A stretch of DNA of 64,000 nt from a virus (lineage: Duplodnaviria; Heunggongvirae; Uroviricota; Caudoviricetes). Every line of letters starts with the position of its first letter. Position 1 is the first letter of the stretch. Below the pieces are notes generated by a model that was given only the letters and a program-made list of their open reading frames with translations, searched no databases and was not told where the DNA came from. The translations under genes and the position numbers were made by a program. The stretch lies in IMG/VR virus record IMGVR_UViG_3300011008_000007; one strand, given 5' to 3'. Of this stretch, positions 266-52,562 are shown one piece after another.

Positions 266-281
266 AGTTGATAATTTTAAT

Positions 282-800: not shown

Positions 801-816
801 TAATAAAACACTCCTT

Positions 817-1245
817 TTATTTAAAAATCCTATAATGAGGTTTTTCTTCATCAAAAAACCAATATCGAAGCCAATCGTCTAAAACAATTGCCGCCAAAGA
901 TAAGAAGAACCATAAAACAGAATATAATAAAGAAACTTGCCCGAAAATATTCAATGGCAAGTTGCTATAATCCCATACGTTTAATTTGAAGACAATATTA
1001 ATAAATACACCAGAAATAAATTCAATACCAGTAATACCCATAGCACAAATTAACATCTGTTTCCATAGTGGCATTTCCCAATCAAACCATTCGTTGATTC
1101 CACCACAAAATACAAAGCATAAGCCGCCCACAATGAACATAGTCCAATGTGTGCGACCTCTCCACGACATTTCTATTCCACAATAAATTAGTCCACCCAA
1201 CACAAATAGAATTAGAAGTTTAAGAATTAATCTAATCGTCTTCAT
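817..1245 (-). CDS. Multi-pass membrane protein (putative ABC-transporter type IV / CmpB-like family)
   Basis: About four hydrophobic segments; motifs GG.IY..IE..WRGRTHWTM and WDYS.LPLN..GQ. Confidence 0.65.
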   Translation of the reverse strand: MKTIRLILKLLILFVLGGLIYCGIEMSWRGRTHWTMFIVGGLCFVFCGGINEWFDWEMPLWKQMLICAMGITGIEFISGVFINIVFKLNVWDYSNLPLNIFGQVSLLYSVLWFFLSLAAIVLDDWLRYWFFDEEKPHYRIFK

Positions 1246-1990: not shown

Positions 1991-3141
1991 TTATTGTTAC
2001 CTTCCTTTCCTTTATTCTTTTTATTTTTAGACTTTTTCGATTTTTTAGGATAGCGCGGCACATAGCCAAACAATTCTTTATATAAGCTGTCCATATTTTG
2101 AACAGAATTATAGGAATTAAATCTAAGTGCAAATCCACGCCAAGACTTATATGAGTTCTCAATATGACTTAATGGCATTTTCCCATCTTCATACTTTTTC
2201 TTAAACTTTTTTAGTTTACGTCTTTCTCGTGTTATAGATTGCTTAGATAATCTGACCAAAATACTCCCATTTGGATTTAAAACTATTTTCTTTTTCAAAA
2301 ATGTAAATCCTTTGTCTATCCTAACAATATGTGTTTTGTTTTCGTTTAAAGTCAAACCAATTTTTGCTGATTCAATTTTGATTAATTCCAAAATTTCTTT
2401 TAGTTTTTCTTTATCATTATGGATAATAATTCCGTCATCCATATAACGAATGTAATACTTAAATCTATACTTGTCTTTAATCATATGGTCTACTGGATTG
2501 CCCATTAATAAAGCGAAGATTTGTGATAATTGACTGCCTAAGCCAATACCAACATAATCTCCGCTTTCGTTTTTTACATCTGCATAAATTTGCAAACTTT
2601 GTTTAATAAAATCTAAAATTCGAGTATCTTTAACGTATTTACTCATTAATTCTATTGCAATTCTGTGATTGATACTTCCAAAATAATTTTTATAATCAAA
2701 AATTAGGGCATATCCAACATTACCGTTTTTTCTATAATATTTTTGTAACATTGCTTTTAATCTATTTAAAGTAAAGTCTAATCCCTTACCTTTTAAAGAA
2801 GCTCCGTTATCATATATTAAAAGTGGTTCGATAATTTCAAGTATATAGTTATCACATAATGCTTTTTGAGGCACTCTTTCTTTTATGTTCATACTTTTTA
2901 TATGGCGGGCTTTGCCACGTTCATATAAATCAAATTCTAATTTACTTTTATATTGAAATGTACCATTAAACAATTCTTGTTGAGTATTATATGTATTAAC
3001 AAGTATTTTTGCGGCATAACTTTGAACGCTGGTTTTCCACCTAACGCCCCTTTGACAATCAATTCCTGCATTTAATAGATTACTAAAAGTGAATACCTCT
3101 TCAAACGTTTTGTTGTTTTCTTTCATATAAAATGCACGCAC
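1975..3141 (-). CDS. DGR reverse transcriptase
   Basis: RT motifs IGLGSQLSQ (DGR-type GxxxSQ) and YIRYMDDGII; adjacent to TR and avd. Start may be ATG at 3126. Confidence 0.95.
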   Translation of the reverse strand: MRAFYMKENNKTFEEVFTFSNLLNAGIDCQRGVRWKTSVQSYAAKILVNTYNTQQELFNGTFQYKSKLEFDLYERGKARHIKSMNIKERVPQKALCDNYILEIIEPLLIYDNGASLKGKGLDFTLNRLKAMLQKYYRKNGNVGYALIFDYKNYFGSINHRIAIELMSKYVKDTRILDFIKQSLQIYADVKNESGDYVGIGLGSQLSQIFALLMGNPVDHMIKDKYRFKYYIRYMDDGIIIHNDKEKLKEILELIKIESAKIGLTLNENKTHIVRIDKGFTFLKKKIVLNPNGSILVRLSKQSITRERRKLKKFKKKYEDGKMPLSHIENSYKSWRGFALRFNSYNSVQNMDSLYKELFGYVPRYPKKSKKSKNKKNKGKEGNNKCSTK

Positions 3142-3316
3142 TCCTTTTCTCCAATACCAAGTACAAGCCTTGATTGGAAGTAAATGCTAATTTATCTCAA
3201 TTTACTTCGAGAAAGGTTTTATACTCCTTCTGTAATTAAATAAATTACTTCTTCATCAAAAGACAATGTGCTGCCTTAGACTACTTGGAAGGCGAGCGCC
3301 TAAATTGTTTAAAATT

Positions 3317-3447
3317 ACAGAATCCGAGCGCCAGCGAATTACCGTTGTTGGCGTTGTTGTTGTTGCTGTTGCCGTTCGTATTGACATTGTAATAGTTGTT
3401 GGTGTTCCCCGTATTGGGTGAACGCAACCACCAGTTGACTGCGGAAC
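3317..3447 (-). ncRNA. DGR template repeat (TR), 131 nt
   Basis: Identical to 4051..4181 except at 12 positions, all A in the TR on the minus strand; 16 AAY codons in the target frame. Confidence 0.97.
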
Positions 3448-3496
3448 AACGAACAAGTTTTTAGCATAAAACCTATATATTATGAAGACCAAGGCA

Positions 3497-3913
3497 TCAT
3501 ATAATACCTTGGTCTTTCATTCTCCTGTTATCGCTCTTTTTGATACTATTAATTTGCTTCCCGATACCAACCGATAATCCAATCCATTTTTGGTGTTGAT
3601 TATCACTAATCTTATTGATGTTAGATTGATAATTTACAGTCAAGCGTCTATGAAAATCTTTTATATTATCAAGTACCAAATTGAAGAAATCGGTTCTTTT
3701 ATTATAGTTTTCTTCCGAAATTAATCTTGTTTGATTAGCCCTCCAAGAATAATATTGAATATTATAAACATCCTCTATTATTGGCTCAACAACAAGTTCA
3801 TAAGACCTTTTGCTTTGATGTTTTGACCAAGCAATAAGTTCCTTAGTCAAAATCCGTGAATCTTCGATAAACTGTATCGGCGACTTAGACCGGTCAAATA
3901 AAGGCACGGACAT
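3497..3913 (-). CDS. avd: DGR accessory variability determinant (Avd-like)
   Basis: Small basic helical protein between target and TR. Probable start MSVPLFDRSKS at 3913 after RBS AAGGTGAG. Confidence 0.8.
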   Translation of the reverse strand: MSVPLFDRSKSPIQFIEDSRILTKELIAWSKHQSKRSYELVVEPIIEDVYNIQYYSWRANQTRLISEENYNKRTDFFNLVLDNIKDFHRRLTVNYQSNINKISDNQHQKWIGLSVGIGKQINSIKKSDNRRMKDQGII

Positions 3914-3957
3914 ATCACTCACCTTCTTTCTGCACAATAAAATGTTTGTTTAATATG

Positions 3958-3983
3958 AAAAAGGGGAAACACGAAGTTTCCCC
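3958..3983 (-). terminator. Hairpin downstream of VR (terminator and/or DGR target-recognition hairpin)
   Basis: GGGGAAAC-TTCGT-GTTTCCCC followed by TTTTT on the minus strand, about 60 nt after the target stop codon. Confidence 0.7.
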
Positions 3984-4041
3984 AATTCGGTTTAATTCTT
4001 TCTAAATTGCTTCTGTTAAGATTTGTGTATTTCATATAGTA

Positions 4042-7000
4042 TCACCCCATACAGAAGCCGAGCGCCAGCGAATTACCGCCGTAGGCGATGTTGTAGCCGC
4101 TGGTGCCGTACGTACTGACATAGTAATAGTTGTTGGTGTTCCCCGTATTGGGTGAACGCAACCACCAGTTGACTGCGGAACCCGTACCCGTCAAGTTGAA
4201 TTGCTTTTTAATTCTTGCGCTCTGTGAAGAGTAGACGGGTAGGGCATTAGTTTCCGCATAATCAGAAACTTCATCAACGAAAGGCGAAGTCGCTCCGAAA
4301 CCAACATCAGTATAACCAAATAAGAACATATTACAAACCAAAGTAGTAATAGTTGTTGGAGCGTTTTGTCCGCCATTTGAGCAGATTTTTACCGGCGTAA
4401 TCATTGACCTCAACATATCGGGCATAGTCGGCTCAATTGAATTTTTGATATATCCTGGCATTTGTGATTGGGCATAACCACCAACATTGGTGTTACCACT
4501 ATGTATTGCACGTCCTGCATTATATACATCCACACAGCCAAATACAACGTGAGCCATATACTGTTGCCTAAACTTGGCAACACGATATTCTTCTGTATCG
4601 TGCGTATATGTTGTGCCTCCGATGTTTTCCGCGCCATTGGGTAACTCTAAATCTGTTGCAGCTTTCGCCCAAGCTCGCTTTGTTTCAGAAATATCACGAG
4701 TTGCCGCAATCGGACTATTTTCTTTCTCAAAGTGGTTAAAGCCTTGAACAGAATAAATAATAGCCTTATCGGTGATAGTTCCGGCATCTTTCAATGAAAT
4801 ACGAATTTTATCGCCATAATCAAGGTATTCTTTGTACTGTTCTGACATACAAATAGCATACAATCCCTCTAAGGTATATGCACTTGTAAAGTTCTCGGTA
4901 TCATTAGTCCATAGATAATCGTATTGTGATTTATCTGCAACTTTCGCAGGAAGTCCACATTGAGAGAAGCGTGCCTCTAACTTAATTACTCCAGTTGATA
5001 CAAATGGAGTTGCCAAAGTTTCGGTAATCTCAAATGTTTCTCTTAACTCATAGTATGAGCTTCCGCACTTCCAATCTCTAAAGATAGGGAATGAGGCATC
5101 CGATAAAGCAGCAACAGTAGGTGTGCTTGTTCCAGCCCATTGAGTTGTATCGCCATATTCAGCAGTAGTCGAATAATTTTCGTGTTCAACGTCGTCGTTA
5201 TCAATAACAACAAACTTGATTGTATATTCTCTTGCAGTTTCAGTATAGGTTGCTGTGAAAGTTTTGTCTTCCCAAACGGCACCCGCAATAGAATTATCCC
5301 AATCGTCAAATGTAAAATCTGATGTTAAATTGCTCGGTTTTGTAGGGGTTTCAAATAATCCTTGTGTAAACGGGTCTGTAATAGTATAACCCTCTTGAAC
5401 ATAGTCCGTGCCTAATAATGTTCCGTCATAGTTTTGATAGGTGATTTCATATTCTGTAATAAGTCTCTTGTATGTAATAGTTAATCCTGCTCCAAAGACG
5501 TTGTTCAGCCTTGTTAATGCTCTTTGTGTAATAGAATTAACCGTAACCGTTCCCTCAATGACGGGGTTATTGATGTTCTGTCCTAAACTATTATAACCTT
5601 TCCATTTATCTGCAATATCTAACAATAACTGTGCGTTAGTTAGTGTCCAATCCACTCCTATCATACGGATTCGACGAGTAGCTGAACCGCTTGCGTTAGT
5701 TGCATTTGTTAAATATGGAACCAGTGCATTACAGAAAGTGCTGTTGCAGTTCTCTACACGAACATCTGTTAGATTGCTTCCACTTTCCATTGTAAATGTT
5801 TCAACATCATTGAGGTTAAATGCGTTAATACCCGTGGCAGAATTAAGGTGAATGGTTTCAAGAGGCGCGTATGCTGGCAAGGTGATAACTCCAGCATTTG
5901 TACCTCTGGTATCAAGAGATTCAAGTTCCGCATTAACCGATAGGTCAAGGTTTTGCGAGAAATTAGTTAAATTACGAATAGAGAGTGTTTTTAATACTTC
6001 GGATGGAACGTCAAATTTTGAATTTGCGTTCCAAGCTGTGTTTATATTTTCACCATCTCCAAGTTCTACACTACTAAGTTTGTATGCGCCCGTTGCAGTA
6101 AATGTAGTAGCACTTGTTGTGGCAAGTGGAGCAACATATTCTATTAAACTTTCGGGAGTAAAATAAATAGTTGCATTTGAGTGTACTGTTGTATTTCCAA
6201 ATACCGCCGTGCCGCCCTTTGCAATTTTACGGGTGACTTTTGTACCATTATCAACGATAAGGGTTACATAGGTTTTAGCATATGCTTTAACAGTCAAATC
6301 TTCTGTTGTTCCAACCGTTGCATTTGCTCTCAAAGTAATTGCAGAGCCAGGAATACGATAACCATACTTACCATCCATATATTTTGATTGATAAGTTAAA
6401 AATTGTTTTCTTGGATATGTTTTTGAACCCTGTAAACTATCAAGATATGAAGAATCATATCCTTTTGGTTCTGTATCATTTCCGACAATAACTCCCGTTG
6501 TTTTATATGGGAGAATATATTTATTATAAGCGTCCGCAGCCATAGCGGCGTGAGGTCTTTTTGCTTGGTAATTATCCCATTTATTGATAATTGAATTGGC
6601 ATTAAATGCACCTCTTCCGCGCAAAGTGATATACAAATCGCTTAATTCGCTTGCGAATGCCTGTTGAATATTTACCCAAATGGTATTGCTTTCTGCATTA
6701 AATGGCGAACGTCCAGATACGATTTCGCCAAAATCAACGCCGTAATCAACAAGCGGTTTACCATCATTATCACAACCAAGAATGGTATCGTCATCATAGT
6801 TTTTACAGATGTTCCATAGATATTTGTTGGCTGTTGAATCGTACTCATATGAGTAGAATGTATTTTTAGATACATTGTCAAATGCGGCAAAGAACTCTAA
6901 ATATAAGAAATGGTATAACAAAGAAGTCAAAGCAAAATAATCTCCAACTTCATTTTTAAACTTTGCTAACCTGTATGCGGCTGAATCTGTAGTGTATTCT

Positions 7001-10000
7001 ACGCCGTCATAGGTAACATAGGGGTCAAGTTCTGCGTTTGTAGCCGCAGCCATATTAGTTGATACTACCCACGCAACTGTATCATCCCAAGCATCAATGA
7101 CTTCGCTATAATCCTCTTCTTTTGGCTCGGCGCGCCACTCGTAATCTTTTTTGACAGTAGGCGTACCATCAACAACGACAACCGACTGCCACTCGTCATC
7201 TGACGCATTATAAGTTGAAGTAGCTCTAAACTGTTGAGCCATTGTGTCGTTACCAGATACTTCAACGCAGCCCTTGGCGTAATGTTCGCCCTCTCCATCT
7301 TGTCCGAAGACTGCAAGGTTCTTTTTGCTGTTACAAATATCACCCATTGCATACAAAATCGTTGTATTGGACGGTACTTGTTGAGAGCCTGCCCAAACTG
7401 TATTTTCGCTTGTATTGGTAAAGAATACTGCACAAGGCTTACCCTCGATGGTATCTCTTACACCAGCGGTTGCTCTTGCGGGTACAAGATATGGCTGATA
7501 TGTGTTATACTCATCTGCGGCACATACGTTGTTTGCATTCTCTGAGGAAGCAACATTAACTTTAATGTTTAAATACGAAACGGGTATTGCATTTTCTGAT
7601 AATTTATAAGTTTCGCCTGTATTGGCAAAATCTATATCTAAGTTACCTGCCGAACGTATCTTATTTAGAGAAGAGGTACCCTGTAATCTATACCGAGTTC
7701 CACTACCCAAAGATAATGTGGTCGAACCGTCTTGGATAGTAACAGAGGCATTAATATAGTCTGATTTTTCTTTTCCTCCAGGGATTCGATTCGCCGCAAT
7801 AGTAACTATTGTCAAATCAGGACAAGCTGCGTGCAACAATGCCTTAGAAATTGATTCTCCCGAATAAACACTATTCACTTGACATCTTTGGATTTTTGCC
7901 AAAGTTGTAGGCGCAAGTGAAATATAGTTTTGTATCATATCTTTGAATGATAGGGAAGTATTATACACACGAATTGCATAAACCCATACGTCACAATGGT
8001 CTGAACCAATTACAAGAGAATTTTCATCCTGAACCAATGTGCCAGCAGTATATTGGTTTGTTAAAGCAGGAATACCATCAAGCCATACGGTCATTACACG
8101 TTGACTAACAACAGATTCAACATTTACAGATAGGTCGATTCTGTTATCTTCACAGTATCTAAATTTCTGACCAGCTACGTTGTTAAGCCTGAACTCACCC
8201 TCGTTAGCTCTAAGAACTAAACCCTTAGATTCGCCGTTGTTTAATTCCTGCATTGCAACAGCGTCATACAAATCACTATTCTTAATTTTGAATGATATAT
8301 CAATAGTTTTTCCGTTACCGTCTACGTCACCAAAGATTTGGCGCGGTAATGTCGCTCTATGTCCTTTCTTAACAACAAAAGCGGCGCCGTCAGCATCAGT
8401 ATGGAATCCACCATTAACCCAGTCGAAACCTGTGCTGAATGTTAGATTTCCGAAACTCGTTTTATCTGAGTCTGTATTGCTGTGACCTGTTGGGTCAATA
8501 ATATATCTAAGGTTATCGCCAGTAACCATACCAATGTTATAGTCACTTTGGGCGATAGTTAATGTCATAGTTGTTGAAACTGCTCCGCAAGTTAAAGTTA
8601 CGGTTTCTGTGCCATAACTCTGTGGAGAGTAAGGAATTGTCTGCATTGTGCGATTAGCACTCAGACTACGGGGAGTTGCGCTTCCAAACTGCATTGTGCA
8701 AGAAGCGGTTTCGTTTGAGGGGTCATATACGAAATAATTGATAACCGCAGTATCATACTGTGATACGCTCATTGTAGATTTAGCAAAAGCCACAACAGGC
8801 GTATTAACACCAATACCCCAAATAACCGTATAACTAATCGGGTCAGAAGTGTCGCTCAAATCCGAACTTGAAGCCATAATAGCAGTTATTTCATTTGCTC
8901 CAGCCGCAAATTTATCCGAGGTAAGCTCAAAGGTAATATCTCTGCTTCCCGTAACAGTTTTTGAGGCACTATAATTTCCAATAGATAATGTTACAACATT
9001 CTCTGAGTTAGCTTGTGCAGATACTTTAACTACGGCATAAACATTTTCACTCGTAGTTTGAAGCATAATTGGAGAAATTGCTTCGCCCCAAGAAAGTGAA
9101 AAAGCTGTTGAAGTAACATTCCATTGTCTGTTCAACTTTGCGCCGCCAACAGAGGTAATAACAGCCTTTACTTGGCTTGTGTCCGAGGGTTTTAGGTAAT
9201 CTTTAGCATTAAAGCTAAACGTTGAACCACTCGCTCTGTCGGGCTGGGTTTCAATAAGAGCATTGTCAACATACCACTTAACCGTAATATCTTCGTCGCT
9301 TGTTTCTGTGGCAACAAAACTAAATATTGCGTTAGCGCCGTTACGAACAGAAGTGGGCTTTACAACATCTGAGAGGTTAATGCCTGCGCCTCCGCCGCCT
9401 CCGCCGGTTCCAACGTAAAACGGGTCAAATCCATCAATATCTGTTCCGTTTAACGTGAGGTGCAATAAGCCATCTTCGTCAACTTTACCTCCATCAAATT
9501 TTAGTCCGCTTTTACTAATATTTATACAATCAGAAGCACTTTGTTTAATCCAGTAAGTCTGTTCATCATCAATTACACACACAAATACCTGTCCAACATT
9601 TAATGCAATGTATGCGGCAGAAGTTGTGTCGGGAGAAGAACTTGCGGCAGGTACTCTGATATTAGTGATAGAGTCGTCGGCAAGTTTCATAAATCCACTA
9701 TTTGCAACCTTATTATCAACCTCTGTTTTAGTATATGTCTGAGATTTTGAATACGAATCACCACCAACAGGTACATACTTTGTGCCGTTGAAACGATATT
9801 GCTGATAAATATCTTCTGCACTATTGTAAATGAAATATTTTAAATCTTCATCTCCATCAGCTACAGGGGGTAGTGAATTACCAATATAATCTCCTGCACC
9901 CATTGGGGTATATGTATAATTACCAGAAGTGCCTTGAATAATATATGCCTTATATCGTCCGCTTGTAGAGTCGAGTAATTTTACACCTTGTCCGGCTTTT

Positions 10001-18908: not shown

Positions 18909-21900
18909 TTAGATTTGGCGCTTACCGCCAGCTTTTCTAATTCCTTGATACATTTTTTTACTTGTGTTTCTATAAGATTGTTCAAGTAAATCTTTTCCTA
19001 ATTTCTTCAAATCTTCGACAGTCGCGGCATCTGCGCTTCCCTCTATGTTGATAAGATTATCATAATATTGAGTTACTGTACCGAGATTATCGACGTTCAA
19101 TTTTGGTATATTGGTTTCCGGAGCCTTTATAATTTCAGACATATCTCCTTGCGCCAATGCAATAAGTCTACCAGTTAATGTAGCAGGTATAACACCATCT
19201 CCTTTTGCAAGAGGTGTAATTGTACCTTTGTTTGAAGTAATTAGTTCTTGACCTCTTTCGTTTATCCACGAATACATATTTCGAGGTACAGAACGTGTAC
19301 CCGAAGCATTGTGCCCCAATACAAGACTACTTGCTGTATTGGTTCCAATTCCTAAGTGCGTTAGCAATTGTATTAGGGTTTCATTTACTCCATTTACAGA
19401 ATCAGCCACTAATGATTGCCCTGACGAAAAGACTTCCATAAGCGAATCAATATCTTGACTAATTTCTTTCCAATTATCATCAAATGCTTCTTGAAGAGTA
19501 TCTTTTAAATCAGAAAGAGAATCTTCACTTATTTCAAGCAAATGGTCTTGAACGGTCTCATCGAGTTCTTCCTGTGCTTCTGCTAAATCCGACAATAGCT
19601 GTGCTTTTTTGGCTTTTGCAGCAGCAGAATTTATACCTTCGAGTGCCGCCAATTCAGATTGCAATTCTTGAATATTTTTGTTCTTCTCACGAATAGATTT
19701 ATCGTATTCATAATAATCTTTTTTGGCTTGGAGTGCATCATTCCTTGCGTCTATCAATTCAAACAAATTATCCAATTCTGTTTGAGCCATTTCTTTATAC
19801 ATAGATACAATTTCGTCCACGGCAGACTTCATATCCTTTGCGCCAGACAATATTTTGTCTTGTAAATCGGCAACTTTTTCAGCATACTCTTCGGCGGTCA
19901 AAATGGACGTGTTGTATAACTCTCCCAACGCCCTGTAACCATCCAAGTATTCATCATAAGTAATTGCTCCGCTATGTAGCTGTTCTAAAAGGACTTGATG
20001 TTGTTCGTTAAATTCTGCATTATTTAATAGATTTTTATTTCTCAATTCATTTAGTTTTTCTAATTCTTTTTCATATTCAGAAATAGAATTTCTGGCATTT
20101 TCATAATTTTGAACCTCTGTGGCTGCTCTTGCTATACCATATTCCGTTAGCTGTCCGTCTTTATCAAATAACATATCGTCACTAATTAAATCTCCCAATC
20201 CATCAACTATTTTTTGGAATCTTTCTATTCCAACGATTGCTTTTTCAAACGGATTCAAATAATACTCTACCAATGAATTGCTAATATCTTTAACTTCGGC
20301 TAAATATTTGTACTCGTCCGCCAAATATCCTTCTTCGAGAGCTCTCCATTGTGCGATAGTTTTTCCGCCATAAACACCATCAGAAGAGCCCTGAGCTAAT
20401 ACCATATTATTATGGGCTTCTTCTGCTTCTCTTCTTGCGGCAATAGCTTTCCTTTGAGCTACAGCTAACTCTTCTCGATAAACAGCAGAACCCTCATCTT
20501 GACCGAGTTTTTGCTGTAAATCGACTAATGCTTCCAGGCGGTTTTTAAATGCATCCAATAATTCTAATCCTTTTTCTAAGGTGTCTATTGGGAGCATAGC
20601 GATAGCATTATTCCACTCTTCTTGGGATATTCTACATTCCTCAGCAGAGTTTTGATAACCCCAATATGCTTCCATAGCGTCTTTATATTCTTGCGAATCG
20701 GTTGTCCAGTAACCGCTTGCTAAGTTTTTCTGAATTTGGTCATACACAGCTTGCGCTTCTTGTTCGTAGAGTTGCTGGTCAATAACAGATTGGGCGATTA
20801 GGGTTTGATAATCTGTTGCCGTTAATGTCAAACCTCTTGTGGTAGCCAATTTTTGAGCAGTTTCGATTTTAGTAGTTTTTGCTTTATTTTCATTACGTTT
20901 GTTTTCGTACTCTTTTTCTACATTGGAAACCATCTCTGCACCAATAGCAGCCTTTTCCGCTTTTGCGGTTTGCTCGTCAATTGCTTTTTGAGCTTCTGCT
21001 TCTCTAAGGTGTTCTAAGGCGTTATTATAATCAACACAAGCCTTATAGAATTTGTATGTGATATAACCCTTGGAATAATATTCTGCCAACTTAGCAATAA
21101 CATTAGCAGGAATAATAGTATTGGCTTTCGCGGCTTTTTGTGCCTTATCAATATATTTATCTACCGTCTTCTTTTGGGACTTGCTAAGATTACCATAATT
21201 CTTGCCACGATGAGCTTTATTAGCCATATTATTGGCTATAATTTTATTTCTGTTTTTATTCTTGTCTTTCTTAAACTCGTTGATTTCTTTTTGGTCATCA
21301 GAAAGAATAGTATCATATCCAGATGCAACCTTTTCAAGATATTGGTTTGCTTCTTTTGCATTTTTAGCATTATCTGCTTTCTGTCTATTTAACTCTTGTG
21401 TATTTGAAGTGGCTGTATCTTTGTTTCCGTACTTAGTAGCAATGTTTTCTAATTTTTCAGCAGAATTTGCAGCATATTCCGTGGCTTGTTCGAGCCTTGC
21501 GGTTTCAACATTTTCTAAAGATAAATTGTAAGCATACAAACGGGTATATACAGACTGATTTACAGAGCGAATAGTGTTAAGGTCAGAATTTGAAATAGGC
21601 TTTTTCTTTTTAATAGCATTACGAGCGTTTTGTAAAGCCTTTTTATATTTCTTCCTCTTTTTCTTATTTTTAATTTTCTTTAGGTTCTTCTTTTTAAGTT
21701 GTTTGTTAATGTTGCTTTTCGCCGTTCTACCCAAAGAATCTCTATCCGATTGTGCTTGTGAAGTCGCGGTCGAATAAGCACTATTCTCCTTATCAATAGC
21801 AGAATTACTATAAGATAGTTGGCTGTTTGCCGCACCATAAAAACTACCAGATGTACTTGTATATCCGCTTGTTCCAATAGATTGATATGTACTTACCTTG

Positions 21901-24900
21901 TCGATTTTAGCATCTCTTTGAGCATCATGTAAATCTTTAAGGTCGTTGATATAAGTGCGAATATTACCGTGTAATTCAGTTAAGGCATCGCTGGCATCTT
22001 GTGCTTTGTCATACCAATCTTGATAAGAACTAATAACTTCTTGCATTCTATCGCCATATGAACTAATATCCATAGTACCATTGGCAACTTTTTTCTTAAT
22101 ACTCTTTGCTTGCTTCTTATTGATTATACCAAGAGAAACCGCTTTATTTAAAGTTTTATTTGCTTGTTTAGTATATTTTGAATATGCAGTTTTTTCATTT
22201 CCAGTTTGAACAGCGGTTGCACTTATTGCTTTTCTATAATTCTTTGTAGCAGAAGAATAATTATTATTATTTGTGGCATTTTCAGCCTTAGTAATATATC
22301 GGTCAATCCTATCAGTTTGACGTTCAAGTTTAATCTCAATCCAATCAAATAATTTATCGAACCAATTTTGGAATTTGGTTAATAGTTTATCCTCAGACGA
22401 ACTGCTTGAAGAACTACTCGATGAACTGCTTGAAGAACTACTCGAAGAACTACTCGATGAACTACTTGAAGAATTGTTAGACGTGTTAAAGCTGCCACTT
22501 CCTTTAGAACCACTAAAAGCATTACCCCAAACAAAAGATTGTCCTCTCTTTTTACCCGTGGTAATCTGTCCCGTTGATAGAAGTTGCTTAGATTGGTTGT
22601 GGTCAAAAATAATATCTCCACTTTTAACATCTATCATTTCGGCACTTTTTTCGCCGATAGTATAATAGTGTCCGTTGCGAGCTAAGATTTCAAATCCTTT
22701 TTCTCCAACTAAGGCTTTGCTGCTATACTTTCCGCTATATAAACCATCTGCGGCAGAAACTCCAAAATTAGAGGTCGTTGTCGTTTTCTTTGTATCTTTA
22801 ACTTTGCCTTTTTTGTCTAAGGTTATTTCAGTTGTAGTAACAGTAACGTTTTTCATTCCTGACGTATCGGTTTTATATTTAAACTTTGCCTCTACGTCGT
22901 GTTTTCCGTCTTTTACGTCTTTTTCAAAATTTGTTATTAAACCAAAAAACGGATTGTAAGAAACAAGTACGGTTTGCTGTTGAGGTTCTTCTTTTTTGGC
23001 TTCGCCATTCTCATCTTTATATCCAACATCAACCATAACCTTTGGCGTAATTGCTTCGATACTACCTTGTAATTGAGTAAGGTCATCTTCGGAAACAGTT
23101 ACACCGGATTTTATCTTTATTCCTTCTTTTCCGCTCTTTTTATCTCCTGTGATATTATCAATAGTGTTTTGAAACTCTTTTGTGTCAAGATTTAATTTTG
23201 CCTTTGTTTCTTCTGGGAGCTTTTTAATCTCCTCCGAACACTCTTTGATTTTTTGAACACTATCTGAGGTTTCGCTACCCGTTTTAACGGCAACCTCATA
23301 GTCGTTGATATATCCTTGGAGTTCTTGAAGTTTGGCAACAGCCTTAGCGCCATCGGATTCTGGGTCGTCAAAATCACTTTTTACATCAATATCCATAATG
23401 GCAGGCTGTTGAAGTTCTTGTTTCTTTCTAATTAGATTTGCCAAAACAATTTGAACTTGATTGGCGTCTTCATCATCTATTCCGACTTTGAAGTTACCAT
23501 TACCATCGTCCCAATTGTTTTTCTCCATTGTTTTTTGGACTTCGAGAATTTTATCTGCGATATTATCAGAATTTACATCCTCTAATTCATAATCTAATTT
23601 AAGAACTCCGCTTTTTTCTAATTTGCTTTTTGCACTTTCAAAAGAACTCTTTAAATCATCCTCAGACATTTCTGCTACGTCAATATCAACCTCAAAACCA
23701 TATTCGGTTAATTTTGAAAGCATATCTTCGACAAATTCAGTAGTGGTTCCCAATTGGTCAGCAAGGTCGTCTTTATCGGAAATATCAAATGAATAATTGC
23801 CATTCTTGTCTTTTGTGGCATATTTATTACCCTCAGAATCTTCCAGTTCTGTAAGCGCTTCTACGAAATTTTTAACGCCCTTTTCGTCTTCATCAAGGAA
23901 ATCTAAAATAGAATAGCTTGTACCTTTTATAGTATTTCCAAGATTTTCATAGGCAGAAGTAACCTCATCAACGCTTGCAGTAGACAAATCCTTGCCAGAA
24001 AGCAAATCAACATAAGTTCTAAATTCTTCCGTACCAACTAAACCTTTGTCATACAAGTCCTTGATGTCACTAAGTTTATCCCTAATATCATCATAAGTGT
24101 CGCCAGCTTCGCCATTATTTAAAGCATCTTGCCACGCTTGATATTTCGACGTTAAGGCTTCATATTGAGAAGCTAATTGCTCTGTATCTTGAATCTTTTG
24201 GGCAATTGCAGACCTTTCGCTTTCAAGCTGGGTTAATTTTGCAGTATTATTTCCGCAAGATTTAATCTCGTCTGTTAGTGAATTGTATTTATTTTGAAGT
24301 TTCGTAAGTTGTGTTGTAATTTCGCTCTTCTTACTGTTGTTATATTCGGATTGTAGCTTTTTAAACTCAGTTGTGTTTAAACGAATACCTTGCGCAGTAT
24401 GTTCAAACAGTTCAAATTGGTCATATTCGTCCAAATCGCCAAATAATTCTTTTACTTTTGAAATACTGTCGTCTGATAATCCAGTATCTCCAAATCCTTC
24501 AGAAATAATTGTATTTATTTCTTCCAGGTTATCTTTGACTCCGGACAAATCAAATTCAAAACTGTCTGTATCTGTTGCTTTAAATTCTTCAATTTTGGTT
24601 TTCAATTCATCCCAAGAAGTTATAGTATCATCGTCGATTTTTAGAATAGTAGAAATATCATCATAAGTCCAAGTCGATAATTTCTTTTTTGCGTCAGAAA
24701 CCGAAATCATACCGTTAGATAATGAGTTGATTCTATTATATACAGTATCTAAATTTTCTCCTTCCGCACCTATATCGCGGAATCCAGACATAATAGCGTC
24801 TTTTGTTTCTTTGGTTATTCCGTCAATACTATTTAATTCCGATGTTAATGCTTTATGATATTCTCTATATTTTTGTAAATCAATTTCTCCATTTTTGAAT

Positions 24901-26738
24901 AAGTCAAATGCTTCGGATAAATCAGTATATTTTGAAATATCAAACTGACTATTTTTAAAAATGGATATAATATTATTTTTAATATAGTCTTTGGCTGCGT
25001 TTGCATCTTCAAATTTTAAATTTGAATAATCGAGATTGTTTATAGCTTTTTGTACGATACCTTGAAACTCATCCGACAATGCAACATAAGAATCCTCTGT
25101 ATTCAACCACGCAAACAAGGTTTGAGTTAAAGAGCCCCAGTTTTGTTTGATTTCTCCCTTTTTGGTTGTTATTTGTTTTTCAATATCATTAACTTCTTCG
25201 TTAAAAACGTTTTCTATTTGCTGAAATCCTGCTCTCAATACTCTTGTTTGTTCGTCAGAAATTCCTCTTTCATCTCCGCCAATAAGAAATCTAAAACCTC
25301 CGCCAAATGAATATGATTCGCTTTCGTCTTGATACTCTATCCCTGCCGATTGAAGTAAATTTCCAATATATTCCTTGTAAGCCTTCACATATGCTTTCGC
25401 ATTATCGCGATTTTGACTATCGCTCAAATTATTATCAAACTTAAATCCCAAATCTTCGGCTGAATAATCTAAGTAATAAGAATCATATACTGTTTTACCA
25501 AATGCGGTTCCAGCTTTGGGCTTGGCTTGCAATTCATCAATAATTTGCTTTTGAATATCAATTTCTTTTCCGTTTTTGTCCGTGAAAGTAAGCCCGTTAG
25601 AAACAACTGTATCTACCATTAATTCATAAGTAGATTTGTTATTGATAAGTTCTTGCAACTCTTCTTGATATTTTTTGTCCTTTTCGAGCGCATCATTATA
25701 TACATCGTCTATGTTTTCGGCAATTTTTTGATTTGCAAGCTGTTGTTCTACCTCTAATAAATTCCTTAAAGAACTGGTAATGTCATTAACGTTTCCGTCT
25801 AATTTTACAATAGCGTTGCCGTTTTCATCATAAATAACTGGTAAATTAGAAAAATTATCCGCAAGTTCTTTGCTTATATCTAAAAACTCACTATACTCAT
25901 CTGCATTTAAACTTTTGTTTTTTCCTGTAAACGTATCAATGCCTTGGGATAACTCTGCAAATCGCTTACTTGAATTACTAATAACATCTTGCTGGGATTG
26001 TAATGCATCAGATACTTCTTGAATTTTCGACTTAGCCTCTTCTGCGGCTTCGGCAAGTTTTTCTGTTCTGTTAAGAACATTATCAAGAAATGTTGTAATA
26101 CCAGTCATAAGAAGTTGCACAATTAAACCAATTCCCATGCCGATTGCAGTATTTAAGGCAGTTGTGGCAACCTGTAATCCGATTGAGGCAACCTTCGAGG
26201 AAATAAGTGTGCCTATATAACCCCTCATTGAAGCATTGCCAGAATCAACATTCGACAAATATTTTCCAAGTATTCCGTTGGACTTGCCTGCGGCTTCTGC
26301 AAATTGTTCTTGGTTGAGAGATGTTGATTCTAAATCATTGTTATATGTGTTAATAAGAGAACGCACAGAACTAAAAGATTTATTTTGTGCAGCGGTTTGT
26401 ACGGTCATTGCGTCGCTTTTGACTACATAACCATTTACTGCTGCTTCCATTTCTTCAACATCCCTTGAAACCGCGTTTAAACTTAAAGCATATTCTTGCG
26501 CTTCTGCCGATGCTTCACGCATTGACATTTCAAAAGCCTCATTTGCTGGAACGCCTTGGTTAATCAATGATAAATAATTCTGTATGGAAGACATATCGGT
26601 GGTTAGGTCTTCAAAACCAGAAAACGTAATTCCTTGGCTCTCTTGGAAAATTGAGGTAATCTGACTTTTTAATGTTGAAAAAATAGACGAAATTTTTAAT
26701 TTGCTTTGTTCTGCTTCGTCTTCTATTGTTTTAAATAT
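18909..26738 (-). CDS. Tape measure protein, exon 2 (2609 aa)
   Basis: Long helical ORF. The ORF-track TTG start overlaps the intron-terminal G at 26739; joins in frame to exon 1. Confidence 0.85.
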   Translation of the reverse strand: MFKTIEDEAEQSKLKISSIFSTLKSQITSIFQESQGITFSGFEDLTTDMSSIQNYLSLINQGVPANEAFEMSMREASAEAQEYALSLNAVSRDVEEMEAAVNGYVVKSDAMTVQTAAQNKSFSSVRSLINTYNNDLESTSLNQEQFAEAAGKSNGILGKYLSNVDSGNASMRGYIGTLISSKVASIGLQVATTALNTAIGMGIGLIVQLLMTGITTFLDNVLNRTEKLAEAAEEAKSKIQEVSDALQSQQDVISNSSKRFAELSQGIDTFTGKNKSLNADEYSEFLDISKELADNFSNLPVIYDENGNAIVKLDGNVNDITSSLRNLLEVEQQLANQKIAENIDDVYNDALEKDKKYQEELQELINNKSTYELMVDTVVSNGLTFTDKNGKEIDIQKQIIDELQAKPKAGTAFGKTVYDSYYLDYSAEDLGFKFDNNLSDSQNRDNAKAYVKAYKEYIGNLLQSAGIEYQDESESYSFGGGFRFLIGGDERGISDEQTRVLRAGFQQIENVFNEEVNDIEKQITTKKGEIKQNWGSLTQTLFAWLNTEDSYVALSDEFQGIVQKAINNLDYSNLKFEDANAAKDYIKNNIISIFKNSQFDISKYTDLSEAFDLFKNGEIDLQKYREYHKALTSELNSIDGITKETKDAIMSGFRDIGAEGENLDTVYNRINSLSNGMISVSDAKKKLSTWTYDDISTILKIDDDTITSWDELKTKIEEFKATDTDSFEFDLSGVKDNLEEINTIISEGFGDTGLSDDSISKVKELFGDLDEYDQFELFEHTAQGIRLNTTEFKKLQSEYNNSKKSEITTQLTKLQNKYNSLTDEIKSCGNNTAKLTQLESERSAIAQKIQDTEQLASQYEALTSKYQAWQDALNNGEAGDTYDDIRDKLSDIKDLYDKGLVGTEEFRTYVDLLSGKDLSTASVDEVTSAYENLGNTIKGTSYSILDFLDEDEKGVKNFVEALTELEDSEGNKYATKDKNGNYSFDISDKDDLADQLGTTTEFVEDMLSKLTEYGFEVDIDVAEMSEDDLKSSFESAKSKLEKSGVLKLDYELEDVNSDNIADKILEVQKTMEKNNWDDGNGNFKVGIDDEDANQVQIVLANLIRKKQELQQPAIMDIDVKSDFDDPESDGAKAVAKLQELQGYINDYEVAVKTGSETSDSVQKIKECSEEIKKLPEETKAKLNLDTKEFQNTIDNITGDKKSGKEGIKIKSGVTVSEDDLTQLQGSIEAITPKVMVDVGYKDENGEAKKEEPQQQTVLVSYNPFFGLITNFEKDVKDGKHDVEAKFKYKTDTSGMKNVTVTTTEITLDKKGKVKDTKKTTTTSNFGVSAADGLYSGKYSSKALVGEKGFEILARNGHYYTIGEKSAEMIDVKSGDIIFDHNQSKQLLSTGQITTGKKRGQSFVWGNAFSGSKGSGSFNTSNNSSSSSSSSSSSSSSSSSSSSSSSSSSEDKLLTKFQNWFDKLFDWIEIKLERQTDRIDRYITKAENATNNNNYSSATKNYRKAISATAVQTGNEKTAYSKYTKQANKTLNKAVSLGIINKKQAKSIKKKVANGTMDISSYGDRMQEVISSYQDWYDKAQDASDALTELHGNIRTYINDLKDLHDAQRDAKIDKVSTYQSIGTSGYTSTSGSFYGAANSQLSYSNSAIDKENSAYSTATSQAQSDRDSLGRTAKSNINKQLKKKNLKKIKNKKKRKKYKKALQNARNAIKKKKPISNSDLNTIRSVNQSVYTRLYAYNLSLENVETARLEQATEYAANSAEKLENIATKYGNKDTATSNTQELNRQKADNAKNAKEANQYLEKVASGYDTILSDDQKEINEFKKDKNKNRNKIIANNMANKAHRGKNYGNLSKSQKKTVDKYIDKAQKAAKANTIIPANVIAKLAEYYSKGYITYKFYKACVDYNNALEHLREAEAQKAIDEQTAKAEKAAIGAEMVSNVEKEYENKRNENKAKTTKIETAQKLATTRGLTLTATDYQTLIAQSVIDQQLYEQEAQAVYDQIQKNLASGYWTTDSQEYKDAMEAYWGYQNSAEECRISQEEWNNAIAMLPIDTLEKGLELLDAFKNRLEALVDLQQKLGQDEGSAVYREELAVAQRKAIAARREAEEAHNNMVLAQGSSDGVYGGKTIAQWRALEEGYLADEYKYLAEVKDISNSLVEYYLNPFEKAIVGIERFQKIVDGLGDLISDDMLFDKDGQLTEYGIARAATEVQNYENARNSISEYEKELEKLNELRNKNLLNNAEFNEQHQVLLEQLHSGAITYDEYLDGYRALGELYNTSILTAEEYAEKVADLQDKILSGAKDMKSAVDEIVSMYKEMAQTELDNLFELIDARNDALQAKKDYYEYDKSIREKNKNIQELQSELAALEGINSAAAKAKKAQLLSDLAEAQEELDETVQDHLLEISEDSLSDLKDTLQEAFDDNWKEISQDIDSLMEVFSSGQSLVADSVNGVNETLIQLLTHLGIGTNTASSLVLGHNASGTRSVPRNMYSWINERGQELITSNKGTITPLAKGDGVIPATLTGRLIALAQGDMSEIIKAPETNIPKLNVDNLGTVTQYYDNLINIEGSADAATVEDLKKLGKDLLEQSYRNTSKKMYQGIRKAGGKRQI

Positions 26739-26765
26739 CAAACTATAAAACTATCTAAAAAACTA

Positions 26766-26794
26766 TTGACAAATATAATAAACAATGATATAAT
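26766..26794 (+). promoter_or_regulatory. sigma70/sigmaA promoter of the intron cargo gene
   Basis: TTGACA-17 nt-TATAAT, with TG near the -10 box. Confidence 0.85.
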
Positions 26795-26821
26795 ATAATA
26801 AATCAAAAAGGAGTTGTGTTT

Positions 26822-27280
26822 ATGGGATTACATTACTATTATTGTCCAAATTGCGCTAAAGTAGATATTAGACCGTGGAAACAATGTGCAAACTGTGGAA
26901 CAAATATACCACCTATAAAGTCAAAAATGGAAATGTATTTTTATATGAATAAAGCACAGGAGATATATGGTGATAGCAATCATTGGTATGATTGCCTATT
27001 GTCAGAAGTAAAAAAGCATCCTTGTTTTAATGAAGATGCACCTTATTCACAAGTTGCAAAAGAAATAACCAGTAATTACAAAAAGCATTACGAAAAAATT
27101 GCCGAAAGGGCAATAAATAAGGTTAATCAAGCAAATGCACCAAAATGTCCAACCTGCAAATCGACAAATATAAGAAAACTATCTGCCGTAAATCGCGCGG
27201 CACACGGTTATGCCTTTGGATTGTTTAGTAAAACTGCAAGGTCGCAATTCTGTTGTAATAACTGTGGATATAAGTGGTAA
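26822..27280 (+). CDS. Zinc-ribbon protein (four CxxC pairs), antisense inside the intron
   Basis: CPNC..CANC at the N-terminus; CPTC...CNNC at the C-terminus. RBS AAGGAG 8 nt before ATG 26822 (track start 26816). Confidence 0.85.
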   Translation: MGLHYYYCPNCAKVDIRPWKQCANCGTNIPPIKSKMEMYFYMNKAQEIYGDSNHWYDCLLSEVKKHPCFNEDAPYSQVAKEITSNYKKHYEKIAERAINKVNQANAPKCPTCKSTNIRKLSAVNRAAHGYAFGLFSKTARSQFCCNNCGYKW

Positions 27281-27288
27281 TATGTTTT

Positions 27289-27322
27289 AGGTAAATGTTT
27301 CGACATTTACCTTTATTTTTTT
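27289..27322 (+). terminator. Intrinsic terminator of the cargo gene
   Basis: AGGTAAATGT-TTCG-ACATTTACCT followed by a T-rich run on the plus strand only. Confidence 0.85.
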
Positions 27323-27647
27323 GTCAATAGTTTTAAATATTATTATATAAAATAGTTCCGAGCGCATATTATCGTGACATAGTTGCATATAATCACGACC
27401 ACCTGTTGTCGCTACTGTGAGGGCTTGTCTATGTAAGACCTATCCCTGCGAACCAACGGAGCGCAACATTTTTACGACCCTAAATTGTCGCCAAAGTAGG
27501 GGAGTAGTTACGTTGTACCGTTTTCCTCGCATATTGAGGCTTCGTTTAAACGAATGTATCTCATTCGCCGCAATATCTAAACTGTCTATATCTAAACAGA
27601 ACTGTTATTGCTATCGGCATATTTATGAGGACAAACATTTTAGTCCT

Positions 27648-29912
27648 ACCGATGTTTTTAAATGAAAGAGCACCCATTGCAACGCTTATCAATGTTGGCA
27701 ATGTTCCAAAAGTATTGTTTACTCCTTCAAATATTTGCAACAATCCGCTTCCCATATCAATGAGAGTCTTTACACCCTCTGAATCAACAAGAGAAGTTGA
27801 ATAAGATTCCCAAGACGCTTGTAATTGGTTTAAGTGTCCTTGAATACTATTCATGTATTTTGCTTGTTCATTTGCAGCGGTTCCAGTTGCATCCGTTGCG
27901 GCTTGTGTTGCTTTTTCAACTTGGTCAAAATTGTTAATTACAGCCGCAACAGCATTAGCATTTCGCTTTCCGCTTATACTTTCAAGTAAATCGGCTTGTG
28001 CGGTGTCGCTCAAATCATCATATACTTCGGAAATTTCTTTTAAAATTTGATATGTACTTTTGAAATCTCCGCTATCTTCAAAAATATTTACTTTTCCGTT
28101 AGTAAGGTTAAGAATATGGGTTTGCATTTGAGAAACCGACTCAACGTTTTCGTCAACTTCTTCTCCTAATTCTTCTAACTCGCCCTTCATGCCGCGCAAA
28201 CGCAAACTTGTGGTGTTAAGCACGGTTCCAGCTTTCTCGGCATTTTGAATAACCTCAATCATACCAGTTGCCAAACCCGTAGATTCCTGAATGGAGTTAT
28301 TGGCTTCTGATAAAGCAGAAGCAGAACGTTCCATTGCGGCACCTACATCTGCGGCACTCAAAGCAAATTCATTACCTAATTTGTCATAAATATCACTTAA
28401 ATAAGAAACAGCTTCCGTTGTATTACCTTGATAAACCTCATCTAATTGTTCTTGGAAGCCTTTATATGCGGTAATTAAGTTTTTGGTAGCTGTATCTGTA
28501 TCAAGGTCTGTAACGTGTTGATATTGGGTTGTGATTTCTGCCAAGCCCTCAGCGGTGTCGGTATCAAATCCAAGTTTTACCCAGCCTGTAGTTAAATCTA
28601 CAATATCTTTGAGTGTGGCTCCGTATTCTTTTGCAGAATCCTTCATTTGATTGAAGAGGTCTGTATAGCCACTTTTTGTTAAATTTGTTACACGATATAA
28701 GCCGGTCATTGCCGTATCAATATTTACAACATTTTGATACATTTCTTTCATTGCCGCAACTGCACGATATATCAATTGCGCCGAAGAAATATATTTAGAT
28801 ACTGTTGTAAATGATTGTTTGAATACTGTACCTAAACTTTGACCAGTCTTACCCAACGAAGTCGCTTGGGCTTTAATCGAATTAAATTCGTTTTCAACTT
28901 GTTTAAACTGACCGACAGTTGCGTTTCCAGAGGAATTTAGCTGAGTTAGCTTATCTCTTAACGACTGTATTGCCGAACCAAAATCTTTACTTGCTTTAGA
29001 GTTTTTAGACATCCAAGTGGAAATCTGATTATCTAAATTCGTTATTTGAAGCGAACTAACAAAAGTTTTAGATTCAGCCGATATAGTAGATAAATTACTT
29101 TTGACTCTTGAAAGAGTTGAATCCCACTTATCATATGCGGCAACTAATTCATCTCCGCTTGCCGAACTAATAGTAGCCTGCAAACTGTTTAGGGTGTTTA
29201 AGTCCTGTTGAACAACTGCTAATTTGCTATGACCAGTTGTGCCAAGTCTTTCATATTGAGCTGTAACCTGAGCAATTGAGGCGGTCATTTTTTCTGGAGC
29301 GCCCTGTAAGTTCATTGCTTGGCTCAACGAAGTCGAATATCTTTTTGCCGCCGCTTCACCTGCATCAAATGTTTGAGTCAAAGTATTACCTTGGCTAATC
29401 AACTTTCCTGTTTCCGTTTCAATTTCTCTAAAAGTAGTTACAATATTACCAGACTTATCTAACCCTTGAATATCAAAACGAATAGTATTTCCTTTTTCTC
29501 TGGAGGTAATACGTTTTATAGCAATATCTAAGTTTTCTAAATCTTTTGTTACATTGCTTATCGAGCTTTTATCAACTCCAATTTTTGATAGGCTCGTTCT
29601 TAATTCATCTATAGTATTTGCGGTAATTTTTACTTGTCCTTTTATTCCTGAGATACCCGATTGAAAACCTTTTGCAAAACTACTTGCCGCACTCGACCCC
29701 GCAGATTGCATATCTCCCGACATTTTAACGGGATTGATATTTATATCGAATTTATGCTTGCTCAGTTCAGACTGTATTTCGTTAATTAAAGCCGCCGTTT
29801 CTGCTTTGAAATTTGAAATTTTGTATTGTTTATCTTGTATTTCTTGTACTTGCTGCAAAAATTTCGCTGTATTTAATTCAGCTTGAAACAGCGCACTAAA
29901 ATTGTCTGCCAT
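27648..29912 (-). CDS. Tape measure protein, exon 1 (755 aa; TP901-type core)
   Basis: Core motifs VVNIDTAMTGLYRV...AEKAGTVLNTTSLRLRG. The last 28 codons of the track ORF are intron read-through. Confidence 0.85.
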
Positions 29913-51118: not shown

Positions 51119-52151
51119 CATTTATACCCTCGGTTTCCCGATATTTAATGAGGGATTAGACTATATCTTCAAATATTATTCTATTACCAAATAATATTTG
51201 CTTGGCACTTCCACTTATGGAATTTCACCATAAATGTACTCTACTCGCTTCTTCACATAAAGTTTTCTTTTATGTTATGCTTTCGATAGTCGTTGCACCC
51301 ATATTAGTGGGCACAGAATTAGCTTGTGTGTGTATATTTTTAATGAATTGGAGCAAACTCTCCAAAATATTGTTTTTCAGCTAAAAGCCTTGAATTTATT
51401 GCATCTGTCTTGTTATTAAAACGTCCTAAGTAAATACGTTTATTATTGCAATTAATATATGAAATCCATTTATTTGATTTTTTATCAAAATGTACCCCAT
51501 TATAACCACTCATATTATTTGAGTAAAGCCCCTTGTTCTTTACATTATCTCTTTGAGTGCATTTCCTCATATTGCTTCTTCTGCAATCTTTTGGATTTCT
51601 ATTTATATGGTCAATAATAGTTCCTTCATTGACACCCATTATATATTGATGCAGGGCTACTCGCTTCTTAGTTGTGGTATTATATCCATAAATATATCCT
51701 TTTTCATTTTCGTACCAGCATATATCCTTAATTTTATCAACGTCATCCAAATCCACATAAAACTCACTTGAAGTATTATGTGTTAAAAAGATAGCAACGT
51801 TGTCTTTTATTGTATATTGGTTGTGGTAGTGTTCAAAAGGTATTGAATTTTTATGGGCAATTTTTAAATAACACGACTTACACATTTTTGCACCATTTTT
51901 CAATTTGTACATATCTTTATCTATAATCGTTCCGCAGTCACATCGGCATTTTAATCTTTTATGGTGTTTGCCAGACGAGTCGATGCGGTCAGACGCATTA
52001 TCAATAATTGTCCAATTCCCGAATCTATCTCCGATTTGTATTTTTTATCACCGCTTATTTATTTTACACACATTTAGCCGTTCTCTGTTAGCATATTTCT
52101 ATACACCCAACATTTGTTGGTTCACCAAGTTTTACAAGGACAGGTTTGTTC
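51119..52151 (-). mobile_element. Group I intron 2 (1033 nt) with HNH homing endonuclease
   Basis: P1 AAGGAU/GUCCUU with terminal U.G; R-like CAACGACUA and S-like AAGAUAUAGUCU; terminal G; in-frame junction. Confidence 0.9.
51340..51912 (-). CDS. HNH-AP2 homing endonuclease (frame open upstream to 52041)
   Basis: IDHINRNPKDCRRSNMR (HNH) and GVHFDKKSNKW...YLGRF (AP2); lies inside intron 2. Confidence 0.9.
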   Translation of the reverse strand: MYKLKNGAKMCKSCYLKIAHKNSIPFEHYHNQYTIKDNVAIFLTHNTSSEFYVDLDDVDKIKDICWYENEKGYIYGYNTTTKKRVALHQYIMGVNEGTIIDHINRNPKDCRRSNMRKCTQRDNVKNKGLYSNNMSGYNGVHFDKKSNKWISYINCNNKRIYLGRFNNKTDAINSRLLAEKQYFGEFAPIH

Positions 52152-52286: not shown

Positions 52287-52562
52287 CATTATCTTAAACA
52301 AATCACGCTACCGATTTGTTAGGGATTAACCCTCTCTTGCTTTCGCAAGAAGTTGAGACTATATCTTCATCCGTAAGGATGCCTACCGCTTCCACCATCA
52401 ATCGCTTATGGTGTACTCTACTCGCTTCCGAATTATATTCGTGCTTTCGATAGTCGTTGAACCTTACCCGTTAGGGTCTTGGCTGCTGATTATCCCGTAG
52501 GACTTCCCAGCAATTCAATAGGAGTTGCCCCATATATTCCTATATAGGCGACCTGTCATTCA
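52287..52562 (-). mobile_element. Group I intron 1 (276 nt, no ORF)
   Basis: P GAAUUGCUGGGA, Q AAUCAGCAG, R GUUCAACGACUA, S AAGAUAUAGUCU; exon ends in U, intron ends in G. Confidence 0.92.

Follow-up and report, generated by a model that had tools for sequence, protein, structure and literature searches.

A group I-like intron in a phage tape-measure gene carrying an antisense gene for a predicted zinc-ribbon protein

Introduction

In the phage genome examined here, the gene for the tail tape-measure protein appears as two separate open reading frames on the minus strand, which raises the question of whether the giant gene has been broken or whether the intervening sequence is removed at the RNA level. 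A sequence-only reading of the 64,000-nucleotide stretch analysed in this study (hereafter the window) had proposed that positions 26739..27647 form a group I intron, which carries an independently transcribed accessory gene instead of a homing endonuclease gene. Group I introns in tape-measure genes have already been published for prophages of the Bacillus cereus group (PMC2504315), and thus the insertion as such is not new. Here, we examined the boundaries, structure, distribution and gene content of this insert by comparative analysis.

Results

Boundaries of the insert

The two open reading frames, 27561..29912 (783 aa) and 18909..26741 (2610 aa), were both confirmed on the minus strand. 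The first one encodes a tape-measure protein (PF10145 PhageMin_Tail, 8.7e-17; phrog_4211, 2.8e-62), and the profile match stops at the insertion point. Removal of 26739..27647 joins the two frames as SFKNIG/IFKTIE and gives a protein of 3364 aa. The second frame has no Shine-Dalgarno sequence or proper start codon context of its own and only a TTG three bases upstream. The main features are as follows:

27648..29912, minus strand, tape-measure exon 1 (755 codons, ending in SFKNIG)
26739..27647, minus strand, intervening sequence of 909 nt (5' ribozyme core 27647..~27350; the 3' part holds the antisense gene)
18909..26738, minus strand, tape-measure exon 2 (2609 codons plus a stop, beginning with IFKTIEDE)

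Three IMG/VR relatives (L010, L011 and L012) have one continuous frame of more than 3000 codons and read KNVG/IFKTIEDE across exactly the same point, which indicates that the 909 nt are an insertion relative to intact genes. Exon 2 is 37% identical to the continuous L012 protein from its first residue. An antisense 154-aa frame inside the L012 tape-measure gene is unrelated to the gene described below and was dismissed as a chance frame. The only ambiguity of the boundary is one base (A27647 = A26738), and only the choice given here places U before the insert and G (G26739) at its end. The joined exons would read AACAUCGGU followed directly by AUAUUUAAAAC.

A family of inserts in gut Firmicutes (pro)phages

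A blastn search of the region against GenBank phages found no match, and a protein search for exon 2 in five other records found nothing. However, homologues of the embedded protein led to two contigs, L014 and L016, in which the same gene lies antisense between tape-measure exons broken at the same codon. Pattern scans with a conserved core motif then identified further copies, including 8 in IMG/VR, 10 in species genomes (Ruminococcus, Lachnospiraceae, Faecalimonas, Clostridia and Bacilli MAGs) and 18 in metagenomes. Three pattern matches were judged to have occurred by chance, namely the GC-rich proteobacterial contigs L025 and L031, and L047, which was not recovered by a covariance model built for the family (R1). 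Model R1 recovered 35 copies at 81-229 bits. All copies in which both ends are readable are located at the same K-N-x-G codon, and in the 16 copies aligned with their 5' ends the insert follows AAAAAYNTYGGT, which encodes K-N-x-G (L036 has GTT for GGT). The ribozyme core of the window copy is 95% identical to that of L016 while the flanking exons are 51-61% identical, which indicates lateral movement.

Comparative evidence for a group I architecture

The predicted RNA elements of the window copy are listed below in 5' to 3' order of the intron, followed by the guide sequence:

27628..27647, minus strand, hairpin inside the P1 loop (AGGAC/GUCCU) with the conserved loop UAAAAUGUUU
27550..27611, minus strand, P2 (27611..27570) and P2.1 (27569..27550) hairpins
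27537..27540, minus strand, P3 5' strand GCCU, pairing with AGGU 27404..27401 (pseudoknot across P4-P6 and P7)
27421..27531, minus strand, P4 (UGCGAG 27531..27526 / UUCGCA 27452..27447), J4/5 GAAAA, P5 with extension and P6 (27446..27421)
27359..27417, minus strand, P7 5' strand C-N-G-U-AGCG (27417..27410), J7/3 ACAAC, P3' (27404..27401), P8 hairpin (27400..27371), J8/7 AAUAU and P7 3' strand GCGCUCG (27365..27359)
27352..27358, minus strand, P9.0 5' strand GAACUAU, pairing with AUAGUUU 26746..26740 just before the terminal G26739
27613..27624, minus strand, internal guide sequence: GCCGAU (27618..27613) pairs with exon 1 AUCGGU 27653..27648 (P1, U.G at the splice site) and AAAUAU (27624..27619) pairs with exon 2 AUAUUU 26738..26733 (P10)

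The guide sequence and the P2, P4, P6, P8 and AACUAU/AUAGUU pairings noticed in the sequence-only reading were all recovered. RNAalifold on 16 members predicted 81 pairs, 51 of which showed compensatory changes. P1 has a U.G pair at the splice site in 16/16 aligned copies, and five exon/guide combinations covary (AUCGGU/GCCGAU, GUCGGU/GCCGAC, GGCGGU/GCCGCC, GUUGGU/GCCAAC and UUCGGU/GCCGAA). The hairpin inside the P1 loop has 5 pairs, 3 of them with compensatory changes, and P2 and P2.1 also covary and appear in the single-sequence fold (-86 kcal/mol, z = -3.2). P4 is 100% paired with 3 covarying pairs, P5, P5a-c and P6 covary, and P8 has 8 of 10 pairs covarying. On 35 members, 98% of cells were paired against 84% in shuffles and 33-43% when the partners were slid, and 30 of 50 pairs were compensatory, which was reached by 0 of 500 shuffles, although this alignment was fitted to the model and leans somewhat towards the structure. 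The P3 pseudoknot, which was added by hand, has all four pairs kept in 31/31 members with six pair combinations.

The 3' end is also consistent with a group I intron. P9.0 covaries (GAACUA/UAGUUC in L018, GAACAA/UUGUUU in L019, GUACUA/UAGUAC in L032 and GUACU/AGUAC in L044), and so does P10 (AAAUAU/AUAUUU in the window, GAAUAU/AUAUUC in L024 and AAAGGU/AUUUUU in L014), with the exception of L016, in which the P10 pairing is offset. The nucleotide before the first exon 2 codon is G in all 11 members where both ends are known. A blind scan of every G followed by a long open frame ranked the homology-defined 3' splice site first in 7 of 12 members on the basis of P10, P9.0 and a terminal G. The helix order is P1, P2, P2.1, P3, P4, P5 (extended), P4', P6, P7, P3', P8, P7' and P9.0, which is the group I topology with its P3/P7 pseudoknot. 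J4/5 (GAAAA) and J8/7 (UAAUAU or UAAGAU) are A-rich, and the P4 flanks (AAUAUGCGGGAA / AAUCCGCAG) and J8/7 (UAAGAU) resemble by eye the consensus of the Rfam group I model RF00028, whereas the R element and the P7 sequence differ.

On the other hand, RF00028 did not detect this copy, seven relatives or the isolated 326-nt core at E<=10, and permissive Rfam searches gave only chance matches to a plastid UTR and to snoRNA or miRNA models. In the same phage, RF00028 scored 86.9 bits on an intron at 52334..52571 and 23 bits at 51137..51256. Model R1, searched against the whole window, hit only the tape-measure intron, and homology with the intron at 52334..52571 could not be shown this way. P3 has only 4 pairs and J7/3 is 5 nt. 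There is no P7.1/P7.2, implying that this is not the usual phage IA type. P7 (GUAGCG/CGCUC) needs an extra unpaired U and is invariant in all members, such that covariation could not test it; the variable N at 27416 fits a bulged base, but the G-binding site is assigned by analogy only. In addition, this copy and L016 lack the P9 pseudoknot domain found in other members.

The antisense gene

The 3' two thirds of the insert are not ribozyme but contain a complete unit on the opposite strand:

26766..26794, plus strand, promoter of the antisense gene (TTGACA-17-TATAAT with TG)
26822..27280, plus strand, antisense gene of 152 aa, with AGGAG 8 nt before the ATG
27289..27322, plus strand, intrinsic terminator (10-bp stem plus T run)
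26759..26773, no strand assigned, one arm of a 15-bp perfect inverted repeat (other arm 27320..27334) that boxes the antisense cassette and could close it as a stem in the intron RNA

The promoter matches the sigma-70 consensus at 12/12 positions, and the terminator (27289..27312) has no U tract when read in the tape-measure direction. With about 25 nt upstream, the promoter is one of eight copies of a promoter family, the other seven of which lie in the early, plus-strand region of the phage or beyond the window. The gene is therefore probably expressed with the early genes by the host RNA polymerase. The upstream element of the promoter, an A-tract, overlaps the P9.0 strand and the 3' splice site.

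The structural model of the protein (pLDDT 86) shows an N-terminal zinc ribbon, a helical hairpin and a C-terminal zinc ribbon, the last of which is nearly invariant (FGLFSKTARSQ..CxNCGYKW). Library searches assigned it to no family: there was only a sub-threshold zinc-ribbon hit in Pfam, nothing above cut-off in NCBIfam (a weak match to NF011481, 'Zn-ribbon RNA-binding', E 0.005), one weak match to an unannotated family in PHROGs (phrog_3845, E 0.0049) and none in PADLOC. Foldseek against PDB and AFDB clusters and the ESM Atlas returned only generic zinc ribbons and phage hypothetical proteins. Thus, no homing-endonuclease family (LAGLIDADG, GIY-YIG, HNH, His-Cys, PD-(D/E)xK or EDxHD) and no nuclease fold matched the embedded gene.

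The sequence-only reading had regarded this gene as a sheltered accessory gene. However, a homologous gene was found in 13 of the first 20 members examined, as well as in L041, L044 and L064 identified later, and it is always antisense and next to the 3' splice site. It is therefore part of the backbone of the intron family rather than arbitrary cargo, and a role in the life cycle of the intron itself could not be excluded. Two observations argue against a strict link to the ribozyme. First, full-length homologues occur without any ribozyme in Tn7-like elements (L013 and L039) and beside McrBC and an IS3-type element (L042); a weak R1 hit inside a TniQ gene in L013 was judged spurious. Second, the protein is only 48% identical between the window and L016 in spite of their 95% identical ribozymes, which implies that the element is mosaic.

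Defence genes between the ribozyme and the zinc-ribbon gene

In relatives, the space between the ribozyme and the zinc-ribbon gene is a hotspot. In L044 (a Bacilli MAG), the insert is about 4.7 kb and holds an HTH gene, ToxN/AbiQ (1e-40), an ORF6N anti-repressor, a MazF-like gene and the zinc-ribbon gene, with the 3' site AAGUACG followed by AAUAUUAAA. In L061, AbiEi (7e-77), AbiEii (4e-79) and an NsnA-like gene follow the core. In L064, a 150-kb viral contig closely related to L061, the insert spans 257..8343 (about 8.1 kb) and holds NsnA, NsnB and NsnC (3.5e-121, 1e-112 and 4e-37) nested inside a split AbiE pair, followed by a further NsnA-like gene, two unknown genes and the antisense zinc-ribbon gene, after which exon 2 resumes with IFQTFDDE. 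Other members carry DUF2513, DUF3825 or a PsyrT-like gene. The window copy is a minimal member, composed of the ribozyme and the zinc-ribbon gene without extra cargo.

Discussion

Taken together, the comparative evidence supports the boundaries and the group I interpretation of the sequence-only reading, and we consider it probable that the insert is a divergent group I self-splicing intron, although splicing is inferred here and not shown. In this model, the late transcript is read through the insert and the 5' 300 nt fold into the ribozyme, whose guide sequence holds the last six bases of exon 1 and the first six of exon 2. The stretch after P7 pairs with the last bases of the intron and so brings the terminal G to the active site, and two transesterifications then join the exons and allow translation of one 3364-aa tape-measure protein. 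Expression of the antisense gene early or in lysogeny is likewise an inference.

Among the alternatives, the one that survives best accepts the same ribozyme but considers the zinc-ribbon protein as the intron's own factor, that is, a new kind of homing, target-site or splicing (maturase-like) protein that occupies the place of a homing endonuclease. In favour of this, the gene keeps its antisense position next to the 3' splice site even when 4-8 kb of other genes lie between it and the ribozyme, the intron is evidently mobile, and zinc ribbons often bind nucleic acids. However, the absence of a detected nuclease fold or motif, the occurrence of homologues without any ribozyme and the lack of co-inheritance with the ribozyme make this possibility rather doubtful. 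It is also unlikely that the insert is a self-splicing or self-cleaving ribozyme of a new class that only resembles group I at its splice-site helices. Neither covariance model detects the other kind of intron and P7, J7/3 and P3 are atypical, but the whole helix order is present together with the U.G pair, P10, P9.0, the terminal G, A-rich J4/5 and J8/7, and P4 flanking sequences close to the group I consensus.

A third alternative, that the insert is an unspliced mobile cassette or decayed element that left two polypeptides or a defective prophage, appears very unlikely. Direct RNA evidence is lacking, the first frame runs 28 sense codons into the insert and ends normally, Rfam is silent, and inserts of 4.7 and 8 kb in relatives would be extreme for a group I intron. 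However, exon 2 lacks a start signal, the exon-flank/guide pairings covary with the exons in many divergent phages, which has no purpose without splicing, the exons are in frame after removal in every member with both ends known, and CheckV rates the provirus as 100% complete. A group II intron, an intein and DNA-level excision were also dismissed, since the insert is too short for a group II intron, has stops in frame and encodes no recombinase.

Several known systems share part of this architecture. The introns TMP-IVS1/2/3 of B. cereus-group prophages (Tourasse and Kolsto 2008, PMC2504315) also lie inside tape-measure genes, have guide sequences adapted to the insertion site and have spread between unrelated phages, but they are IA1/IA2 ribozymes with or without remnants of homing-endonuclease genes, whereas the present intron has no P7.1/P7.2, is not detected by RF00028, is located at another site and carries an antisense gene with its own promoter. 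The nearest architectural analogue appears to be the IStron (CdISt1 of Clostridioides difficile and BcISt1 of B. cereus), in which a 5' group I ribozyme is likewise probably followed by a long coding module, an IS200/IS605-type transposon (TnpA/TnpB) in the sense orientation. No transposase is present here, and the zinc-ribbon gene is the only frame of 60 aa or more in the insert apart from frames that overlap exon 1. Canonical phage group I introns with homing endonucleases, including the RF00028-positive intron at 52334..52571, also interrupt an essential phage gene and have the P1 U.G pair, terminal G and P3-P9 core, but the latter intron has a GACUA/UAGUC P7 and a long insertion between P7 and P3', where subgroup IA introns have P7.1/P7.2. 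Nuclear rDNA introns such as L2066 (PMC9548176) carry a protein gene on the strand opposite to the ribozyme, but those genes are His-Cys box endonucleases in eukaryotic rDNA, whereas here the gene has a bacterial promoter, no nuclease signature and a location in a phage protein-coding gene. Finally, the antisense unit fits the description of a moron in having its own promoter and terminator, the content of the insert varies between family members, and prophage defence hotspots such as those of P2/P4 (PMC9122126) also hold swappable defence systems at a fixed position; however, known hotspots lie between genes and not inside an intron within an essential structural gene. Full-text searches found no paper on antisense or defence cargo in phage group I introns, although absence from the library searched is not proof.

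A more far-reaching possibility, for which support is only tentative, is that this family is a mobile vehicle for accessory genes. The compact ribozyme and the constant antisense zinc-ribbon gene would form a backbone that lets phages park independently transcribed genes, up to whole defence islands (AbiE, NsnABC, ToxN and MazF-like; 4.7-8 kb), inside an essential late gene at no cost to the tape-measure protein. The zinc-ribbon protein would be a new kind of intron-associated factor, and antisense early transcription across the 3' splice site would couple cargo expression to control of tail-gene splicing.

Standard annotation misses this ribozyme, so that giant tape-measure genes are called as two genes. 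For this phage, the spliced protein predicts an unusually long tail, and the length of roughly 500 nm given in the sequence-only reading is a reasonable extrapolation. Group I introns in phages are usually seen as selfish elements that carry at most a homing endonuclease. In contrast, this family keeps an unrelated, separately promoted gene on the opposite strand, and in relatives it holds complete abortive-infection and nuclease defence systems. This would make a self-splicing intron a safe harbour for accessory genes inside an essential gene, and a concrete case of benefit passing from intron to host.

Other introns and transcription signals in the phage

A search with the Rfam group I model (RF00028), which does not detect the tape-measure intron, revealed a canonical group I intron in the same window, which follows the 502-aa ORF 52560..54068, as well as a second and weak hit 1.1 kb downstream:
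52334-52571 (-), canonical group I intron, 86.9 bits, with a long insertion where subgroup IA introns have P7.1/P7.2
51137-51256 (-), weak RF00028 hit, 23 bits

We also identified a family of promoters of about 50 nt (consensus TTTATAAACCTATCAAAAAAACTATTGACAAA ... TGTTATAAT) that marks the early plus-strand region of the phage. One copy, at 26744-26795 (+), drives the gene inside the tape-measure intron, and the others were found in seven places in the same genome (G000 positions 6238, 21709, 22293, 24825, 36231, 44233 and 46505).

Two further features lie in the intron:
27098-27114 (-), a weak terminator-like hairpin with a T run, in the tape-measure direction and antisense to the zinc-ribbon ORF
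27561-27647 (-), continuation of the exon 1 frame for 28 codons into the intron before a stop

It is possible that the hairpin could attenuate read-through of the late transcript. The extended exon 1 frame implies that unspliced RNA would give a 783-aa truncated tape-measure fragment.

Variation among intron copies and homologs of the zinc-ribbon protein

Differences were observed in the guide region and in the 5' part of some related copies. In the close relative L016 (minus strand, 2302-2344 and 1489-1503), the bases 5' of the P1 strand do not pair with the first six exon-2 bases; instead, AAUGGUGGU pairs perfectly with exon-2 positions +7 to +15. Three genome copies (L026, L030 and L035) keep the P3-P9 core but lack a recognisable 5' exon, P1 or guide sequence, and they may be rearranged or decaying copies.

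Full-length homologs of the zinc-ribbon protein were also found outside any intron, in three loci (L013 4001-4477, L039 3501-3971 and L042 166-648). Two of them sit at the cargo end of Tn7-like elements (after TniQ), whereas one sits near an IS3-type transposase and McrBC.

Finally, a nested insertion was observed inside the intron of a relative, the viral contig L064 (745-4798), in which an NsnABC system sits between an N-terminal AbiEi fragment and a C-terminal AbiEii fragment. Thus, in this intron one defence system was disrupted by the arrival of another.
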